NCBI GenBank assembly: GCA_043228905.1
Contig: JBHGNT010001203.1
Span: 1 to 10,986 of the forward strand
Length of the DNA: 10,986 nucleotides
Source: Azolla caroliniana
Taxonomy: Eukaryota; Plantae; Polypodiophyta
Reading direction: 5' to 3'
Positions 777 to 10,986 of this stretch are shown piece by piece (the first letter of the stretch is position 1; each line of letters starts with the position of its first letter). The position numbers were made by a program, and so were the translations under genes. The notes beneath the pieces are model-generated. The model did not search any database. It was given only the letters and a program-made list of their open reading frames with translations, and was not told the origin of the DNA.

Positions 777-1089
777 TGAGGACTCTTGATAACCCGGAAC
801 GGGTGAAAGAAGATGGCTATTTACAGCCTGCAACATGTTATGGAGATTGAAGGTTCTTGATTGCATAACAAAAGGGTATAGATTGCATTTTACCTCGTTT
901 GGTAGACCTTTGTGGAAGCTTTTTATAGAACAATTTTCAGATTGATTGTTTACTTTACTCTATGGTGGAGTCAAAACTTTTCATCAAAACTTTTGTTTTT
1001 TCAACCAGCATCTTATAAAGATGTTTTGGGGAAATTTTTGTATGTTGTTATGACTTTTCTAAATACTAATGGAAGTATACTTTCTTTTG

Positions 1090-1111
1090 AAAATAAAAAT
1101 AAAAATAAAAA
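1090..1111 (+). repeat. (AAAAAT)n A-rich tract at the junction with element A
   Basis: AAAATAAAAATAAAAATAAAAA lies immediately before homology to element C begins. Confidence 0.8.
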
Positions 1112-2950
1112 GTTAATACTAAAAGTAACCCTCCAGTACATGTCTTAGCACTCCTAGATTCTGGAGCTAATTCTTGCTTCATGGATAGGAATTTTGCCCA
1201 AGCTCATCAGATATCCCTAAGAAAACTCCCTTGTCCAGCCTCAATAGTAGTCATTGATGGTCGTCCCATTGCTTCCGGAAATATCATAGAAGAGTCAGAG
1301 CCAGTTAATATTGTCCGAGATAATTTAGCATGTGTAGTATCATTTAATATAATTAGAAGTCCATAACATCCCATTGTTTTGGGAATACCATGGTTCGAAT
1401 TACATAACCGAGACATAGATTGGAGAACAAGAGAAATCCAGTATTGACAAACCCGAGGATCTACTCATAGGATTGCAACCATTTCGCTACATCAATTGCG
1501 TGAGGAAGGACACAATGTTCGTCTTTGCGGTATCAGTAAAACCTTCCAACACTACTAAAGAGGAATCCAAAGTTCAACTTCTTGAGAAGTATCGTCATTT
1601 TGCCGATGTGTTCGATAAGGTACAAGCCAATATGCTTCCTCACAACTGATCGTATGATTGTCCCATCGATTTACAACCCGGAAAAGAGCCACCATGGGGA
1701 CCGATCTACAACTTGTCACCAATCGAGCTAGAAGTCCTTCGAGCCTATATAGAGGAGAACTCGGCAAACGGTTTCATTCGACATTCGAAATCTCCAGCTG
1801 GCACACCCATTTTCTTTGTCAAGAAAAAGGATGGATCACTTCGTCTCGTTGTAGATTACCGTGGCTTGAATAAGGTCACCATCAAGAATAGGTATGCACT
1901 CCCCCTTATCTCAAGTCTTTTAGAACGGATCAATGGTGCAAGGTTCTTCACAAAGATCAACTTACGAGGAGCATATAACCTCGTATGGATCCGACTAGGA
2001 GATGAATGGAAGACCGCGTTTCACACTAGATATGGGCACTTTGAGTATACGGTCATGCCATTCGGTCTCACTAATGCGCCAACCGTCTTCAAACACATGG
2101 CAAATGATATATTATGAGATCTTGTGGATGTTTGTTTGATCGTCTATTTGGATGATCTACTGGTTTATTCGAAGACCCAAGAAGAGCATGATTCTCATGT
2201 ATTGTTAGTACTAAAACAACTTTGAGAACATGGTCTTTATGCAAAACTAGAAAAATGTAGTTTCGAGTGCAACCAAGTGGAATTTCTAGGCTATGTCATC
2301 TCCTCGGAAGGCATCTCTATGGATCCAGCTAAGGTCAAAACTGTGGTAGAGTGGCAGACTCCACGTTCGTTGCGAGATTTGCAATGCTTTTTAGGCTTTG
2401 CCAATTTTTACCGCAAGTTTATACATGATTACTCAAAGCTTATTCTGGCTCTCACACAACTTACCAAGAAGGGGCAGTCGTTTGTTTGGTCTAAAGAAGT
2501 GGACAGGGCTTTTGAGAGTCTTACGAAGGCATTTACATCAGCTCCTATCCTAGCCCATGTTGATCCGAAAAAACCGTTCATCATTGAGGTAGACGCATCG
2601 GATTTTGCCTTGGGTAGCATTCTATCACAACAAGGCGATGATGAAAAGCTACACCCTATGGCTTTCCACTCGCACAAGTTTGACACCGCCGAAATCATCT
2701 ATGAAATTCATGATAAAGAGCTATTAGAAATAGTGGATTCTTTTACGCATTGGAGGCATTTTCTAGAGGGATCTTCTCATCAAGTCACCGTATTCAGTAA
2801 TCACAAAAATCTTGCCTACTTCTAGAATGCTCGTGTATTAAATCGACATCAAGCTCGGTGGGCCCAATTCCTCACTTGTTTCAACTTCAAAATTACATAT
2901 CGTCTTGGGAAACAACAAGGGAAGGCAGATGTGTTATCACGATGCTCGTA
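1111..2950 (+). pseudogene. pol: Element A pol: aspartic protease, reverse transcriptase and RNase H (disrupted)
   Basis: Protease motif ALLDSGANSCFM (DSG at 1157-1165). RT motifs [26 protein letters not shown] and YLDD (2145-2156). RNase H motifs EVDASDFALGSILSQ and YEIHDKELL. Multiple stops and an ~8-bp deletion near 1514 relative to C. Confidence 0.95.
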
Positions 2951-3244
2951 TCTATCACCGCGTCCCGGTGAGCCAACATTTGATAAAGCAAGTAATCCTG
3001 GGACCGATATGACAGCAAGCAACACGTGTTTTTGATATGCCATTGGATTCCCACATTATTGATACCATACGTGAGGACTTGAAGACAGATGCTTTCGTGA
3101 CAAGCCATTCTAGCACAAATTGATCCTCTCGGGCATCTTGTTCACAGTCGCAACAACCAAATTTGAATGTCATGATGGATTACTATTCTTTAAGAAACTC
3201 TTGATGTTCCTAATGGTTCCGGTCGCCTTTGAGTAATCCAAAAC

Positions 3245-4324
3245 TTTCACGAAACATATACAGTTGGGCATTTCGGTAGTACTAAAACGTTGGATTTAGT
3301 ACAACGATAATTCTGGTGGCCTCATATGTGATGATTTGTCGAAGACTATGTTCGGACATGTGATACATGTTGCAGGGCAAAGATGCCAAGACATCATCCA
3401 TATGGTTTATTGGAACCATTGCCAATTCCAGGTAAGACGTGACAATCCATTTCTCTAGATTTCATCACAGATCTTCCAGTTTCAAAGGGATTCAACGCGA
3501 TCTTAACAGTAGTAGATCGATATACGAAGATGGCTCATTTTCTGCCTTGTACTAAGGAAATCACTAGTGAAGAAACCGCCGAAATTGTCATGCGAGAGGT
3601 ATGTCAGCATCATGATCTCCCCGATAGCATCATCAACGACCGTGGACCCCAATTTGTCTCGAAATTCTGGAAGCATCTCTTCAAAATGCTCAAGGTCACT
3701 TGTAATCTCTCCTTCGGCTATCACCCACAAACAGATGGACAAGCAGAATGAATGAATCAAACGCTGGAAAAGTATCTTCGGTGTTTTCTAAGCTATCAAC
3801 AAGATGATTTGGCGGATATTCTCCACTTTGCAGAATTTGTGTATAATAACTCTGTCCACTCATTGACTAGGGTTACACCATTTTATGCTTATGTGGGCTA
3901 TCATCCCCGGTCGTGTGTATTTGAAACTCCGGAGTTACCCATAAATCCTTCTGCAGAGGATCGTTTGGAGCGGCTACGCAAGATACCGGTAGACTTATCT
4001 ACTCATTTACAACAAGCTCAACAAACACAGAAGGATTATGCGGATCGTCATCGGCTTCCATCCAGTTTTAACATTGGAGATCGGATATGGCTATTACGAT
4101 GACACATCAAGACTACTCGACCATGCGATAAATTGGATTATCGGCAATTAGGTCCTTTCTATATTATCGAAAAAATTAATCATGTCGCTTTTTGTCTCGA
4201 TCTACCTTCAAAACTACGGATACATTCAATTTTTCATAGTTCTCTTCTCAAATCGTATCACGAAAACACTATTCCGAATCGTATTATACCGCCTCCACCC
4301 TCGATCGAGCTTGAAACAAGACCG
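3245..4324 (+). pseudogene. pol: Element A integrase (HHCC, DDE, GPF module), disrupted
   Basis: Motifs FHETYTVGHFG...TCDTC, SISLDFITDLP, IINDRGPQFVSKFW, YHPQTDGQAE* and QLGPFYIIEKI, with in-frame stops (e.g. 3749, 4100). Confidence 0.93.
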
Positions 4325-4417
4325 GAGTACGAAGTAGCTGTCATCCTTGATTCCAAGATTGTTTGCAACAAGCTCTACTATTTGGTTGATTGGCTAGGCT
4401 ATAGTCCAAGTGAGCGT
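4325..4417 (+). pseudogene. Element A chromodomain, N-terminal part, cut by the element B insertion
   Basis: A Pro-rich linker (PPPPSIELE) is followed by EYEVAVILDSKIVCNKLYYLVDWLGYSPSER. The expected 'TWEP..NL' is replaced by B's LTR starting at TGTCGTG 4418. Confidence 0.9.
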
Positions 4418-4632
4418 TGTCGTGTTGTTACACTTTCATGTGTAAAATAGGCGGGACCACAGGGGCCCTGAACCGAGGAGTGAGAGAGACGAGGAGGTGA
4501 GAAGCACACAAGTGTAAGGCTCGCTAGACCTGTCAGCAACCGGCGGCACTTACTCGTTGATTGAACCACCAACGCGTATACCGATTGAATCAAGGAGCAC
4601 ACTCGGGAGAAGTGAAAGAAGACACTCCCGGA

Positions 4633-4686
4633 AACAGAGATAACAGAGATAACACAGACAACACAGACAACACAGATAACACAGAA
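4633..4686. repeat. Minisatellite, 6 x 9 bp (AACASAGAH), inside the B LTR
   Basis: AACAGAGAT AACAGAGAT AACACAGAC AACACAGAC AACACAGAT AACACAGAA. Confidence 0.92.
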
Positions 4687-4834
4687 ACAAGAGATTCAAT
4701 TACAATAACTGTGACAATTACAACGATGGCAACCCTGTAGAGAATGATGGTAGAGGAAGAGAGAGCTCGGTTCCCAGTCCGACATCACCTCCTTTTCCCA
4801 AAACGTGATACCCCCTTCTTCTTCTCCCCTCCCT

Positions 4835-4841
4835 CTTATAT
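4835..4841 (-). promoter_or_regulatory. Putative TATA box of the B LTR
   Basis: The minus strand reads ATATAAG followed by purine-rich AGGGAGGGGAGAAGAAG, a common plant LTR promoter context, about 230 bp into the LTR. Confidence 0.55.
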
Positions 4842-5069
4842 GTCACCGAGGAGGCCGTTACATCCCAAACACATTAATTTTATTCTCTGTCCCTTCGGAC
4901 AGAGATAGCATCGATTTTCCTAATTAACAAATATCTCATACCTAGTATATTTACATCAGCTGTCCTATTCCTAGTTATATACAATGTATCAATTCACGCA
5001 CACCCGTGAAAGGGTGGGTTCATGCCTTGAACTCCTTGATTCCTCTTAGGGCCGGTTTTCTTCACGACA

Positions 5070-5081
5070 TCCACCCCCACC
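5070..5081 (-). other. Polypurine tract of element B
   Basis: Minus-strand GGTGGGGGTGGA immediately precedes the LTR's TGTCGTG. Confidence 0.8.
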
Positions 5082-5143
5082 AAACCGCGCATCCACCGGT
5101 ATGCGCTAGACACGAACAATTGTCGGAGAAGACCGGTCCGTAA

Positions 5144-7303
5144 TCATCCGTCACCTCCTAAATCCCCGTTAGCTCCGAACCGGTCGTCGTCGTTGTTGGT
5201 CACGCTTCCCGGGTCTGGCTCGTCCTCATGCCACTTATTGAACGCCTTGATCTGCTTCCCGGCTACCGACGCTGTTAATCACGTCCCATCGAGCCCGTTG
5301 TCATTTGCGCTCGTAACGGCGTAAGGCCCGAACCACCTCCTTGTGAATTTGCGCATTGCCTTGTGCTGGTTGTCGAGGCTGTTGTCGTACACTAGCACCC
5401 AGTCGCCTTCCTTGATCTTCTTTGGCCGCAATCGATGCTTTCGGTCGAACCGGCCTTTATTCCTCTCCCTCGCCGCATGCAGCTTCACCTTTGCTCGCTC
5501 CACGTCCTTTGGTCTTCACTCGAGTTGTCAAATCCACGCCGCCAACAGCTCCTCCCGGCTCATCTCGTTTCTCCAATCTATCACCGCCCAGGAGGAAATC
5601 GTCCGGTTCACCGGCATGATTGGCTTCTGCCCGTACATCAGCTTCGCCGGCATGAACCCTGTTACCGAACTGTGCGTAGTCCGGTCCGCCCACAACGCGT
5701 AAGGAAGGAGGCGCGGCCAATTCCCGACCTGTCCGTCGCATGCGCGTACCAACGCCTTCACGATTGGCCTATGCCCGCGTTCTACCTTCCCGTTGGCCTC
5801 CGGATTGTATGCCGCGGTGAGAGAGAGACTAACCCCTAGCCGGTCGAACAACTCCTCAGCTTCTTGTGTGTCCAGATCTCCTTGGTCTGCTATGATCTTC
5901 CCCACGCACCCATATCGGCATACTACCTCTTCGATCAGAAACTGGCACACCGCTGCAGTCGTCTTGTTCTGCAACGCGCGGCCGTCCACCTGGTTTGTCA
6001 AATCCTCCTGCGCAAGCACCAGGTACCGCATTTGCCCTAACCCCATGGGCATCATTACTAAGTCTACCATCCATTTGGAATGGATGGTTGGCGGGTAGGT
6101 CGGGTGTAGCTCATCTCGATGTCGGACTGTGGAGTGCAGCTGACAACTTTCGCACGTCGTCACGAACTGGTACACATCCCGGTACAACCCTGACCACCAA
6201 TACTTCTCTTTCAGTTTCTCGAACGTAGCCCATGTCCCGCGGTGCCTGGCCCAAGGACTCTCGTGGTACGTCGTTAACAGCTTGTCCTACTCGTCCTTTC
6301 TCTCCATTACGCAAAGCGGAACGCCGCGTCGCTTCTTTGGGAGCTTCCATATACTTCCGTCCCGTAGGAAGAATCGGTACGCTTTCTTTTGGATCCGGTT
6401 AGCCTCCTCTCTGGTCCATGCCGCATCCGGCATAATTGTCCTTAGGAACCTTCCAATCTGGAGCCACTCCTCGTCGTACTCGCTCTCGTTGAACCCGTTA
6501 AGCACCGGAGTGCTCACTGTCCTTGTCGCTACGCGAGCCGACTCGAAGAAGTCTATGCCCACTTCTTCGTCCTTCGAAACCATGCCGTTCTCGTCGTCGA
6601 ACTGCGCTCTAGAAAGCATGTCGGCCATGGTGTTGTCCTTTCCGGAGATGTGTCGTATCTCCGAATCCAGGGACTTAATATACGCGATCCAGCTGGGCAT
6701 TGCTAGGTCCGAAGTCGTGCACCCGGAGACCATTCCGAGGATCGACAGACAATCCGTCTCGATGATTACTTCTGTCCCGATCAAGTAGTCTTTATCAATC
6801 TTGACCGCCGAAACGATACCCCACAGTTTGCGCTTAACTTGGGCGTATCCTCGCTATCGCTCACTGAGAACCTTCACCCCGAACCGGATCGGGAACCGTG
6901 TGCCTCTCTCGTCCTCCTGACTGATCACCCATCCTATCCCGGTTGGGCTCATATCTATGGTTACATAGATTGGGACCTCCTTGCCATAAACCGCTTTCAG
7001 GAGAGCCGATGCCGCAATAAGCGCCCCCTTCTGTCTCCGGATCGACTCCGTATGCTCCTTGCCCCATTCAAACTTACGCCCCTTTTTCAGTAGCCCGTAG
7101 AGTGGTTCTGTGATGTGTGCGTAGTGCGGAACCCAGATGTGATAGAATGCACACGCCCCCAAGAACCTTCGAACCTCTGTAACCGACCCGCATTTGTCCT
7201 TCATCGCGGAGATGGACTCCACCTTCACCGGAGACGGTTTCCGGCCGTAAGGCCCGCACAAGTGCCCGACTACTAGGATCTCCTACTGCCCGAAAGCTGA
7301 CTT
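5144..7303 (-). pseudogene. pol: Element B pol: RT C-terminus, RNase H and integrase in one frame with 5 premature stops
   Basis: ORFs starting at 7261, 6784, 6187 and 5503 are all in the same frame. Motifs: KSAFGQ*EILVVGHLC, EVRRFLGACAFY, VTIDMSPTGIGWVISQ, IETDC, GKDNTMADMLSR, YHESPWARHRG..CESC, WMVDL, IIADQG, YNPEANGKVERGH, WFGPY. The natural stop is TGA at 5146-5144 after an acidic tail; there is no chromodomain. Confidence 0.93.
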
Positions 7304-7308
7304 CTGTC

Positions 7309-7381
7309 ATGATATGGCAAGACTCGAACCCATGACCTTAGGTTATATGGGTCGAGCTCTTGACCATTAGATCATCTATTG
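7309..7381 (-). promoter_or_regulatory. tRNA-like sequence with RNA Pol III A box and B box, antisense, at the U3 edge of the C LTR
   Basis: Minus strand: A box TGATCTAATGG (7374-7364), variable-loop-like AGGTC and B box GGTTCGAGTC (7330-7321), at canonical tRNA spacing. The anticodon and acceptor stems do not pair. Confidence 0.7.
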
Positions 7382-7434
7382 TAATACGTAGGATATTATT
7401 TTCATTTACATTTTATTATAGGAAATTAGTGTAT

Positions 7435-7484
7435 ATTCCAGATTTCTCTGGAACATTCTAGAAGCTTCAGGATTACTCCTGAAA
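7435..7484. promoter_or_regulatory. Heat-shock element array, 10 in-phase alternating nGAAn/nTTCn units
   Basis: TTCcaGAtttcTCtgGAAcaTTCtaGAAgcTTCagGAttacTCctGAA: 6 perfect and 4 single-mismatch units, with a perfect 4-unit core at 7451-7468. It ends a few bp before the TATA box. Confidence 0.78.
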
Positions 7485-7488
7485 ACAC

Positions 7489-7495
7489 TATAAAA
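7489..7495 (+). promoter_or_regulatory. TATA box of the C LTR
   Basis: CTATAAAAG, with a CA initiator-like dinucleotide at 7521-7522, about 33 nt downstream. Confidence 0.8.
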
Positions 7496-7600
7496 GAGGG
7501 CACTAGGCATTTTGTTGAACCAAATTGGTTCAACGCCAGTCTTAAGCCTTTTAGCCACCATTGTATATTCTCTTCATATAATACATATCTTTCTTATCAT

Positions 7601-7660
7601 CACTCTCTCTCTCTTTCAATCTCTCTCTTTCTCTCTGTCTCGCTCACTTCTTCCTTCTCT
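7601..7660 (+). repeat. CT-rich, (CT)n-like tract in LTR R/U5
   Basis: CACTCTCTCTCTCTTTCAATCTCTCTCTTTCTCTCTGTCTCGCTCACTTCTTCCTTCTCT. Confidence 0.8.
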
Positions 7661-7742
7661 CGAAGAAGTTCCACACCTCTCATAGTACTAATCCTTCGTT
7701 TAGTACTAATTCCTTCTCCGTCTCAGTACTGTTCATGACAGT

Positions 7743-7754
7743 TTGAACCAATTT
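7743..7754 (+). other. Self-priming type primer binding site
   Basis: TTGAACCAATTT lies 2 nt after the LTR end and is the exact reverse complement of AAATTGGTTCAA (7522-7533) at the predicted transcript 5' end. No TGG tRNA-type PBS is present. Confidence 0.82.
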
Positions 7755-7814
7755 TCCCTACCTTCTGTCTCTCTCATTTCCTACTAATCTTTTATTCCTC
7801 TTTTCTTTCATCCC

Positions 7815-8975
7815 ATGGCCATTGTTAGCGCTGAAGAATATCAATCTGTTTTCTCGGAATTTCAATGCTTGAAGGAGAAGTTCCATGCTTTGGAACAAGA
7901 AAACCAACGGTTGCTGGGGGATCTTCAGCAAATCTCCTTAGAAAAGCAGCAAATGCAACAACAACATGGGGAACTTGCATTACGCGTGTAACAACTCGAA
8001 GCAACCATCGTAGCGATGCAACAACAAGGGCCCGGAACACAAGGGATTCATGAAGAACCCAAGATTGGCCTTCCCACGAAGTTCGATGGAACGCGATCGC
8101 AGTTTAGAGGGTTCCTTAACCAGGTACGATTAGTTATTCAAATGCATCCTTCCCGATATCCCACCGATGCATCACGAGTGGGTTTAGTAGGCACTTTGTT
8201 AAGTGGCTCAGTGTTGTCATGGTTCGCTCCACTATTAGAAAAGGAATCTTCGTTACTCAACAATTTTGGAGAGTTTCTAGGTGAGTTTAAAGCATGTTTC
8301 GGAGATACTGACAGCATCAGGACCGCAATCAACAAAATCCGGCGATTACGCAAAGGTGACCGTCCAGCCTCCGCATACGCTGCAGATTTTTGCCTACTCG
8401 CCGCCGATATCCCTTGGGATGATCAAGCGTTGATGGAGCAATTCCGTTATGGTTTACGCAACGACGTCAAGGATTTACTATTGACCTTCCCCGAAGAGCC
8501 AAAGTCCTTAACAGAAGCGATCAGTCGCGCGGTGAGATGTGACAACCGCCTCTTTGAGCGACGTTCAGAACGACAGCTACAGATGCCGAGGGCAAGATTA
8601 GAGCCCACCTACGCCTCAGTGGTAGCAAGACCTTTTCCGAGGGAGTCATATAATGTGCCTCCAGCGAATACTCCGACTCCGATGGAGATTGACACTACAC
8701 GTCGTCGAGGGCCATTATCTGAAGAAGAAAAGCAGCGACGCCGTACAAATCGACTATGTCTTTACTGCGGTGGACCAGGACATATCGCAATAAATTGCCC
8801 CAATAGGCCAAGAAGACAGGTAAACCAAATAGTCGCTAGTTCTAATTGTACTAAATCCGAGCCTATTTCAGTAGGGATATCTGATAGTCCTAATAGTACT
8901 AATAGTACTAATATCCCAGATCTAGCAAACAAATTTGATGTCCTTAGTCAGTTAGAAGAAGAGTTAAACGACTAA
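7815..8975 (+). pseudogene. gag: Element C gag (386 codons, one premature TAA at 7989-7991)
   Basis: ATG 7815 is in frame with ORF 8016..8975. It encodes a Q/E-rich coiled-coil-like N-terminus, capsid motifs PTKFDG..FLNQ..LSGSVLSWF and LRKG..ASAYAADF, PMEID, and the zinc knuckle CLYCGGPGHIAINC (8757-8798). This is sushi/PEG10-like architecture. Confidence 0.93.
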
Positions 8976-9014
8976 GTCCAGCCAAAATAGGAGCCGTTTG
9001 GTTGGACAGCCCTA
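8963..9014 (+). other. Putative -1 programmed ribosomal frameshift signal
   Basis: G_TTA_AAC (8963-8969), a 6-nt spacer, then an 11-bp stem 8976-8986/8997-9007. Pol is in the -1 frame and is open only from 8948. Confidence 0.75.
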
Positions 9015-10986
9015 GATCTGTGCAGCCCATTAGTGGTTCCATTCCCTCTAAGCAAGTTAGTGATGTGTTCGTAGCCCAAGTAATAGTTAGTACTAAAAGT
9101 ACCCCTCCAGTACATGTCCTAGCACTCCTAGATTCCGGAGCTAACTCTTGCTTTATGGATAAGAAATTTGCTCAAGCTCATAAGATATCCCTAAGAAAAC
9201 TCCAGTGTCCAGCCTTTGTAGTAGTCATTGATGGACGTCCCATTGCTTCCGGAAATATCATAGAAGAGTCAGAGCCCATTAATATTGTCCTAGATAACTT
9301 AGCATGTGTAGTATCATTTAATATTATTAGTATCCCAGAACATCCTATAGTTTTAGGATTACCGTGGTTCAAGTTACATAACCCAGACATAGATTGGAGA
9401 ATAAGAGAAATCCGGTGTCGACAAACCCAAGGGTCAACTCAAAAGATGGCAACCATTTCGCTACGTCAGTTGCGTAAAGAAGGGCGCAAGGAGGAAATGT
9501 TCCTCTTTGCAATATCAATAAACCCCTCCAGCACCACTAAAGAAGAATCCACCGTTCAACTTCCCGAGAAGTATCGTCATTACGCTGATGTGTTCGATAA
9601 AGTACAAGCCAACACACTTCCTCATCATCGACCGTACGATTGCCCCATCGATTTACAACCGGGAAAAGAGCTGCCATGGGGACCGATCTACAATTTGTCA
9701 CCAACCGAGCTTGAAGTCCTTCGGGCCTATATAGAGGAGAATTTGGAAAATGGTTTCATTCGGCATTCGAAATCTCCAGCCGGCGTGCCCATTTTCTTCG
9801 TCAAAAAAAAAAATGGATCGCTTCGTCTCGTTGTAGATTACCGTGGCTTGAATAAGGTTACAATCAGGAATAGGTATGCTCTTCCCCTTATCTCAAGTCT
9901 TTTAGAACGGATCAATGGTGCCAGGTTCTTCACGAAGATCGATTTACAGGGAGCATATAACCTTGTACGGATCCGACCAGGAGACGAATGGAAGACCGCG
10001 TTTCGCACCAGATATGGGCACTTCGAGTATACGGTCATGCCGTTCGGCCTCACTAATGCGCCGACAGTCTTCCAGCACATGGCTAATGATATATTCCGAG
10101 ATCTATTGGATGATTGTTTGATCATCAATTTGGATGATCTACTGGTTTATTCAAAGACCCAAGAAGAACATGATTCTCATGTACTATTAGTACTAAAACG
10201 ACTTCGAGAACATGGTCTGTATGCAAAGCTAGAAAAATGTAGTTTCGGGTGCAACCAAGTGGAATTTCTCGGCTACATCATTTCGTCAGAAGGCATCTCC
10301 ATGGACCCAGCTAAGGTCAAAACGGTGGTAGAATGGCAGACTCCGCGTTCGGTGCGGGATGTGCAATGCTTCTTAGGCTTTGCCAATTTTTACCGGAAGT
10401 TCATACAAGATTACTCAAAGATCGTTCTACCTCTCACACAACTTACCAGGAAGGGACAACCGTTCATCTGGTCTGAAGAAACGGACATGGCTTTCGAGAG
10501 TCTTAAAAAGGCATTTACATCGGCTCCAATTCTAGCTCATGTCGATCCGGAAAAACCATTCATTATCGAAGCTGACACATCGGATTTTGCATTGGGGAGC
10601 ATTCTATCACAACAGGGGAATGATGAGAAGCTACATCCTGTGGCTTTTCACTCACGCAAGTTTGACGCCGCCGAAATCAACTACGAAATTCATGATAAGG
10701 AGCTATTGGCAATAGTGGATTCTTTTATGCAATGGAGGCATTTTCTGGAGGGATCCTCTCATCCAGTCACCGTATTTAGTGACCACAAGAATCTTGCCTA
10801 CTTTCAGGATGCTCGTGTGTTGAATTGACGTCAAGCTCGGTGGGCCCACTTCCTCACGCGTTTCGACTTCAAAATTACATATCGTCCGGGGAGGCACCAA
10901 GGGAAGGCAGATGCATTATCACGACGTTCGTATCTAGCACCCCGTCCCGGCGAGCCAACTTTCGATAACCAAAAACAAGTCATCTT
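8966..10986 (+). pseudogene. pol: Element C pol (protease, RT, RNase H; continues beyond the window), inactivated
   Basis: ALLDSGANSCF (DSG 9131-9139); RT motifs with YLDD changed to NLDD (10127-10138); RNase H motifs EADTSD, HDKELLAIV and SDHKNL. A premature TGA is at 10826-10828, where A has CGA, and the frame continues [28 protein letters not shown]. Confidence 0.95.

Follow-up and report, generated by a model that had tools for sequence, protein, structure and literature searches.

The DNA studied here is a stretch of 10,986 nt from Azolla caroliniana (contig JBHGNT010001203.1), called the window throughout, which contains three nested Ty3/gypsy retrotransposons: element A (~1100-4417), element B on the opposite strand (4416-7304) and element C (7305-10986). 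Element B interrupts A in the chromodomain of A, and element C interrupts B in its reverse transcriptase (RT)/RNase H region, while A, which is broken, belongs to the same family as C and shares with it blocks of 85-89% identity. This report concerns the outer edge of the 5′ long terminal repeat (LTR) of element C, which spans 7305-7740 on the plus strand (436 nt, TG...CA) and carries, on the opposite strand, a putative promoter module of the tRNA gene type. A reading made from the letters of the window alone (the sequence-only reading) had described this module as a tRNA-like RNA polymerase III (Pol III) promoter built in antisense into the edge of the LTR, and the sequence quoted there does lie on the minus strand at that place. 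Its position at the outer edge also held, with the B box ending 16 nt inside the LTR, but the LTR itself begins at 7305 and not at 7309 as had been read. When contigs of four organisms were aligned to 7240-7900, they jumped in depth and showed loose ends at the TG at 7305, which marks it as the outer LTR end, and a purine tract precedes 7305 in contigs of four organisms where the copy is a 3′ LTR. Three of the related loci described below (L001, L002 and L008) match the LTR of element C over its full length.

The tRNA numbering given in the sequence-only reading could be placed on the window, with T8 at 7374, A14 at 7368, G18 and G19 at 7365 and 7364, positions 44-48 at 7338-7334, G53 at 7329 and C61 at 7321. 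On the minus strand the module thus numbered comprises an A box (positions 8-19; 7364-7374), a spacer of fixed length and mostly free sequence that has no anticodon stem (positions 20-43; 7339-7363), a variable-loop relic (positions 44-48; 7334-7338) and a B box (positions 52-62; 7320-7330) located 16-26 nt from the outer LTR end. The A/B-box consensus has 13 fixed letters over the two boxes, and the pair described here has no mismatch at any of them, being the sole such pair on either strand of the window; when the 436-nt LTR was shuffled 20,000 times by mononucleotide, 30 of the shuffles produced a zero-mismatch pair. The 44-45 nt from T8 to G53 seen across related LTRs correspond to 33-34 nt between the boxes, inside the 30-60 bp range of type 2 Pol III promoters, which TFIIIC is said to need (PMC11346459), and A and B boxes are described as the binding targets of TFIIIC (PMC13578239, PMC13437025). 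On this pattern, the outward-facing pair is probably a TFIIIC site.

A tRNA-model search, which the sequence-only reading had suggested, was run with ARAGORN and Rfam (RF00005); neither called a tRNA gene at the module and no cloverleaf with paired stems was found there, and the module is therefore not a tRNA gene. The best match to a possible source tRNA was 38/72, against tRNA-Pro, in a comparison of only three host tRNA genes without a control. A blastn search against phages returned nothing beyond T-arm matches of 18-19 nt (E 3-9), and no relatives were found in viral and prokaryotic collections.

Occurrence and conservation of the A/B pair

Relatives of element C were picked using a Gag alignment, and 79 loci were fetched from the best 80 of 271 matches, on assembler-collapsed contigs from 16 assemblies of one accession series. 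We set 33 LTR starts without reference to the module, 26 by a purine tract followed by TG and seven by a TG at LTR distance from the primer-binding site, and addition of the window gave 34 LTR starts, which fall into 23 clusters at an identity cut-off of 90% and 13 groups at one of 75%, taken over 250 nt. Within the first 130 nt, a minus-strand pair with at most two mismatches at the 13 fixed letters is present in 32/34 LTR starts, 21/23 clusters and 12/13 groups; the module is thus found in nearly all related LTRs, and its absence from other copies, which the sequence-only reading had named as a ground for refutation, was not observed. The strict pattern RVTGG-N25-50-GTTCRA occurs in 23 of the 34. 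On the plus strand of the same LTR starts the pair was found in 0/34, whereas the further controls gave 3/33 (minus) and 6/33 (plus) for the next 130 nt, 5.5% for dinucleotide shuffles and 331 of 4,886 for other tiles (50 of them strict). The distance from T8 to G53 is 44 or 45 nt in 33/34 LTR starts with a search window of 40-55 and in 30/34 with one of 30-75, while G53 lies 20-49 nt away from the LTR end across the 34.

The pair does not look like an inserted tRNA-derived short interspersed element (SINE), whose A/B-box head would lead into a body, an A-rich or simple-repeat tail and a target duplication: no tail is present in the 34 LTR starts, and the LTR ends 20-49 nt after G53. The pair may still go back to an ancient SINE. 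The 201 calls made by ARAGORN across the 79 loci at a lowered threshold were discarded as noise.

The Gag tree splits a 24-row set from the distant loci L071 and L078 (~50% Gag identity) with full support. By eye, these two loci have no A/B pair at the edge of the LTR and nothing closer than a stretch resembling a B box, and the LTR start of SM-Tcn1 from Selaginella gave no B-box match by eye, so the module looks confined to one sub-lineage.

Further tRNA-like sequences were seen elsewhere in the fetched loci. One clade has a second antisense A/B-like pair in the protease-RT linker of pol, with no mismatch at a spacing of 43 in L011 (2912-3060) and L045 (8352-8500) and one mismatch in L013, L018, L021, L037, L043 and L053; the linker is longer in that clade, the pair is missing from other clades and from the window, and it may be a coding coincidence. 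Two tight A/B matches outside the called LTR starts, at 1723 (minus strand) in L056 and 291 (minus strand) in L063, are probably further LTR copies. L045 also holds, at 1074-6322, seven tandem tRNA-like copies that score 30-48 bits in Rfam, one of them with a GT-type anticodon call.

Conservation was assessed as between-group identity over 22 rows from 12 groups (213 pairs; L050 excluded). Identity reached 0.89 at the ten fixed box letters, a figure that is partly so by construction because the rows were anchored on the boxes, and 0.81 at positions 44-47, as against 0.41 at the free letters of the boxes, 0.36 in the spacer (positions 22-43) and 0.38 in the upstream U3 (unique 3′) region of the LTR. 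Four-fold sites of Gag were 0.33 identical between groups (159 pairs, mean protein identity 71%). The boxes and their spacing are thus far better conserved than the neighbouring U3, a comparison that the sequence-only reading had proposed as a check. Positions 16, 20, 44-47 and 52 are kept although they lie outside the anchoring, and positions 9, 15 and 57 are variable yet purine in 22/22 rows, as the box consensus permits. In an unguided MAFFT alignment of 17 LTRs, 18 window positions reached at least 85%, 16 of which fall in the boxes or at 44-47; T8, A14, T16, G18 and G19 stood at 94-100% and the variable-loop relic, which was no anchor of the rows, at 88-100%, and the columns were in register with host tRNA-Asp and tRNA-Pro genes from the flanks. 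Within the family, the variable places (among 40 of 114 contig rows and 40 of 48 RNA rows) lie upstream, in the spacer or at the free positions 10 and 12; a single place in the RNA reads is at position 45, and no fixed letter varies among the rows listed. Between groups, the RNA polymerase II (Pol II) enhancer switches while the A/B module stays. Altogether, a selected tRNA-type promoter module is well supported by these sequence comparisons, and the module is real, lineage-wide and likely under selection, so that the interpretation in the sequence-only reading is supported in part.

Predicted transcript and the rest of element C

The module is overlain by an imperfect inverted repeat at 7309-7375, which had been overlooked in the sequence-only reading and gives z values of -4.69 on the minus and -3.65 on the plus strand. 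It folds as one long hairpin and not as a cloverleaf (minus strand -29.1 kcal/mol, with 0/200 shuffles as low), because the A-box half mirrors the B-box half, and this fold raised the worry that the A box is a mere mirror image of the B box. The hairpin is, however, specific to the family of element C, with z values of -3.4 to -6.3 in three rows of that family as opposed to -1.5 to +0.9 in 18 valid rows of other groups (L050 excluded), so that it represents a later overlay and does not explain the boxes. In the four tRNA stems, Watson-Crick pairing was no better than after permutation of the groups, with 0.24 against 0.20 in the acceptor, 0.36 against 0.36 in the D, 0.25 against 0.29 in the anticodon and 0.30 against 0.27 in the T stem. 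An arm-swap energy test (L050 excluded) gave permutation shares of 0.11 for the T, 0.22 for the D, 0.95 for the anticodon and 0.04 for the acceptor arm.

The place at which a Pol III transcript might end is equally variable. Of the 26 LTRs linked to a purine tract, 8 have the first run of four T (T4) within the LTR, 5 have it 9-45 nt past the LTR and 1 has it 190 nt past, while 12 have none in the 300 nt or less available; in the family of element C the first T4 lies 37, 515 or 883 nt past the LTR edge, and across the lineage its position ranges from inside the LTR to >1.5 kb beyond. Upstream of the module the sequence is AT-rich, as is all of U3, with no conserved CAA at -10 to -3; upstream, CAA and terminator signals of tRNA genes are reported to be weak in non-flowering plants (PMC13437025). 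Three poly(A) RNA runs gave 13, 10 and 9 reads, poly(A) selection being uninformative for non-polyadenylated RNA. As the boxes are conserved and the fold and terminator are not, it is probably the DNA boxes that are under selection, and not an RNA product.

Further inside the LTR, and likewise on the plus strand throughout the element, lie the features of Pol II transcription and reverse transcription. A GAAnnTTC array at 7451-7468, which we take to be heat-shock-element-like, is likely a Pol II enhancer. The TATA box of the Pol II promoter (7489-7495) stands 34 nt before the predicted RNA 5′ end and self-primer (7523-7534), and the distance from TATA to the R region is 33-34 nt in 25/26 LTRs. 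The self-primer is complementary to the primer-binding site at 7741-7753, which is of the self-priming (Tf1/Tcn1) type and not the complement of a tRNA 3′ end; in 25 of 26 two-ended LTRs at least 10/11 letters of the two are complementary, with matched changes on both sides. A pairing of the U3 B box with the self-primer was considered and, by eye, set aside: from group to group the self-primer varies without a matching change in the B box. U3 enhancers are of two types by LTR group, either GAAnnTTC arrays or arrays rich in CATGC and CCAARTGGC, the latter presumably akin to RY/ABRE seed and desiccation motifs, with L017 and L050 showing neither.

Behind the primer-binding site, gag occupies 7815-8975 (Retrotrans_gag, Ty3_capsid) with one in-frame stop before 7992, and pol (protease, RT, RNase H) follows at 8948-10986, its frame ending at a stop at 10828 and the element continuing past the window end. 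Among named Gag proteins, one from Ceratopteris is closest, with 51% identity. The integrase of element C lies outside the window, and a chromodomain was found in its kin, namely in sister element A as a weak match (PF00385, E 1.6e-4, below the curated cut-off) and in Pol protein P0126, which is 88% identical to the RT region of C. From the self-priming site, the chromodomain in kin and the layout, we class element C as a self-priming, Tcn1-like Ty3/gypsy element, the tree that was built being one of Gag from the fetched loci. The family is very abundant in its hosts, its summed contig depth being ~80x that of the neighbouring element in run X1, a value that is not a copy number. Elsewhere in the window, no purine tract was seen by eye at the boundary of the 3′ LTR of element B (4975-5040), and positions 1-300 contain purine-rich short tandem duplications with units of 37 and 64 nt.

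Possible roles of the module

Facing outward in antisense, the module cannot be the source of the genomic RNA, and its retention over a time in which neutral sites became saturated suggests that it does another job. Our preferred reading, which we advance tentatively, is that TFIIIC and Pol III form a complex at the LTR edge which shields the element's Pol II promoter as a barrier. The module would have been captured from a tRNA gene, a SINE or a Helenus-like repeat in the ancestor of the lineage. Its outward A and B boxes would bind TFIIIC and a full Pol III complex would assemble, with TFIIIB sitting on the AT-rich stretch towards the enhancer; this complex could keep the LTR edge open and prevent silencing from reaching the Pol II promoter, which lies 115-210 nt deeper in the LTR, and its outward direction would avoid transcription through that promoter. 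Retention of the A box beside the B box makes a full Pol III complex likelier than TFIIIC alone, and, given that the product varies, selection is more likely to act on assembly or on the act of transcription. A barrier or opening role is favoured by the reported properties of the tRNA gene (tDNA) barrier at cen1 of S. pombe, which depends on an A box and on Pol III and functions whichever way it points (PMC2040200), together with the reported aiming of such elements at heterochromatin by chromodomains (PMC2864245). By extension, and with a little more reserve, one may propose that this autonomous, heterochromatin-targeting lineage carries its own tRNA-gene-type insulator, each copy bringing a TFIIIC/Pol III-bound edge barrier that would protect a stress-inducible Pol II promoter. 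If true, the abundant LTRs would seed Pol III barrier sites genome-wide in the host. Insulation of this kind would explain how elements with a chromodomain can still be expressed after landing in silent chromatin, and would provide a compact natural test case for TFIIIC/tDNA barriers in plants; the abundant family could also be a large TFIIIC sink and a source of non-tRNA Pol III sites.

Several points weigh against a barrier. The spacing of the boxes is far tighter than the 30-60 bp tolerance of TFIIIC, and AGGT at 44-47 is kept though it lies outside the textbook boxes, neither of which a barrier explains. C56, a requirement of the B box, is changed to T in 4/22 rows, and the L050 group (4445-4575) has lost the A box and duplicated the B-box stretch, making it the sole group without the pair. 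The acceptor arm gave a signal reached by 4% of permutations, albeit a weak one, being one of four arms and with one row behind it. The 16 assemblies belong to one accession series, so the LTR groups are related and do not represent independent origins. The barrier precedents drawn on here are from yeast, with none from plants. Plant LTRs, moreover, are usually methylated. CpG methylation is reported to exclude TFIIIC (PMC11346459).

Alternatively, the RNA could be the point, with outward Pol III transcription from the 3′ LTR producing an RNA antisense to the purine tract and to the end of integrase, which would limit or time retrotransposition. We regard this as unlikely. The orientation fits, the T4 positions past the LTR edge in the family of element C and the strong hairpin there are in keeping with such an RNA, and there are reported precedents in the antisense RNAs that restrict Ty1 (PMC12786077) and in the Pol III hairpin RNAs that foamy viruses make from LTR A/B boxes (PMC3993851); the predicted RNA is, however, not conserved, its T4 being variable in position and its hairpin limited to one group, and in the 8/26 LTRs with T4 inside it would stop short of the purine tract. 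A role in integration, in which TFIIIC would sit on the U3 end of cDNA not yet integrated, or of resident copies, and serve tethering or target choice as in Ty3, appears rather improbable. The B box does lie 20-49 nt from the cDNA end in 34/34 LTR starts, and Ty3 itself is reported to integrate at Pol III start sites. Against such a role, the position relative to the end shifts by 29 nt, the module is present at just one cDNA end, and element C sits inside the pol gene of another element and not beside a Pol III-like site.

We consider it very unlikely that the constraint acts on RNA, either through U3 of the genomic RNA pairing as an anti-tRNA with a host tRNA for strand transfer or through a minus-strand RNA that mimics the shape of a tRNA. 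The strict 44-45 nt spacing and the kept letters at 44-47 would fit a co-linear RNA role, the D and T stems are still partly paired if G-U counts as a pair (0.59 and 0.68, with one faulty row included and L050 excluded), and a title in the references of PMC11241228 concerns an HIV-1 U3-R tRNA-like stretch that promotes minus-strand transfer. A real tRNA copy would nevertheless keep its stems, and here Watson-Crick pairing is no better than permuted; Rfam, run over 16 loci, scored no module, whereas it scored 9 host tRNA-like genes in the same loci; and, as the element is self-primed, no tRNA would be bound at its 5′ end. Least credible, and by these comparisons largely refuted, is a neutral relic, be it a SINE or tRNA piece that was captured once and is decaying or a by-product of the family palindrome. 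The broken boxes of some copies (the C56 changes and L050 without its A box) might be expected of a relic, and Repbase is reported to hold 'not a few' LTRs with partial similarity to tRNA (PMC10886601), but Gag four-fold sites are saturated, as are the spacer and upstream U3, and yet the fixed letters retain their high identity, and the palindrome is missing in 11 other folded groups that keep the boxes.

Relation to known systems

In its general build, element C has much in common with Tcn1 chromoviruses such as SM-Tcn1, namely a self-priming site, a chromodomain, the gag-pol layout and an LTR of ~440 nt (PMC2864245, PMC6317226), and the self-priming layout is reported for most Tcn1 chromoviruses (PMC6317226). 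In SM-Tcn1 we could see a complementary pair of self-primer and primer site by eye, although its paper reports no evidence of self-priming. The available text of the two Tcn1 papers makes no mention of a Pol III module (PMC2864245, PMC6317226; element tables and FASTA supplements outside coverage). More generally, the literature searched yielded no account of autonomous chromoviruses with an antisense A/B module at the edge of their LTRs, with most subscription papers and the Repbase entries outside coverage. Novelty is tempered by the remark of Kojima 2024 that partial likeness to a tRNA is seen in 'not a few' Repbase LTRs, of which only short ones were analysed (PMC10886601). The cen1 barrier of S. 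pombe, which acts regardless of its orientation and requires the A box, TFIIIC and Pol III, provides the working mode proposed here; it is a centromeric host tRNA gene with demonstrated barrier activity (PMC2040200), whereas the present module is a degenerate copy in a mobile element, for which such activity is proposed.

Pol III promoters in LTRs have so far been those of gene-less miniature retrotransposons with terminal repeats (TRIMs), where they make the element RNA, and those of foamy virus microRNA (miRNA) units. Like the module described here, the foamy virus cassettes are A/B-box units in the LTR of an autonomous, Pol II-transcribed retroelement; they yield defined, experimentally shown hairpin RNAs with terminators (PMC3993851), in contrast to the whole tRNA-length module at the outer edge of the present LTRs, whose fold and terminator are not conserved. 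The Cassandra and Ajax TRIMs likewise have a long-conserved internal Pol III promoter in the LTR (bioRxiv 10.1101/2023.07.14.548913, PMC10946416, PMC10886601). That promoter is of the 5S type (A, IE, C) and replaces Pol II in non-autonomous elements, whereas here a tRNA-type A/B pair stands beside an intact Pol II promoter.

Cassandra, the precedent offered by the sequence-only reading, thus does share a Pol III promoter in the LTR, but Helenus (TRIMp3), which was not named there, is closer. Its LTRs contain tRNA-derived sequence with conserved A and B boxes and no functional tRNA, and its use of Pol III is likewise deduced from conservation (PMC10886601). Helenus elements are gene-less, 311-1263 bp long and tRNA-primed (PMC10886601), in contrast to the autonomous element C with gag-pol, a chromodomain in its kin, self-priming and a TATA-type Pol II promoter, and autonomous elements are expected to rely on Pol II promoters (PMC10886601). 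The tRNA-like part of Helenus lies in sense in the three Helenus LTRs inspected and is believed there to make genomic RNA (PMC10886601), while the present module lies in antisense and faces outward. With gag and pol following the LTR, an almost open gag directly after 20 LTRs and a self-priming site, element C is not a Helenus, though it carries the same kind of part.
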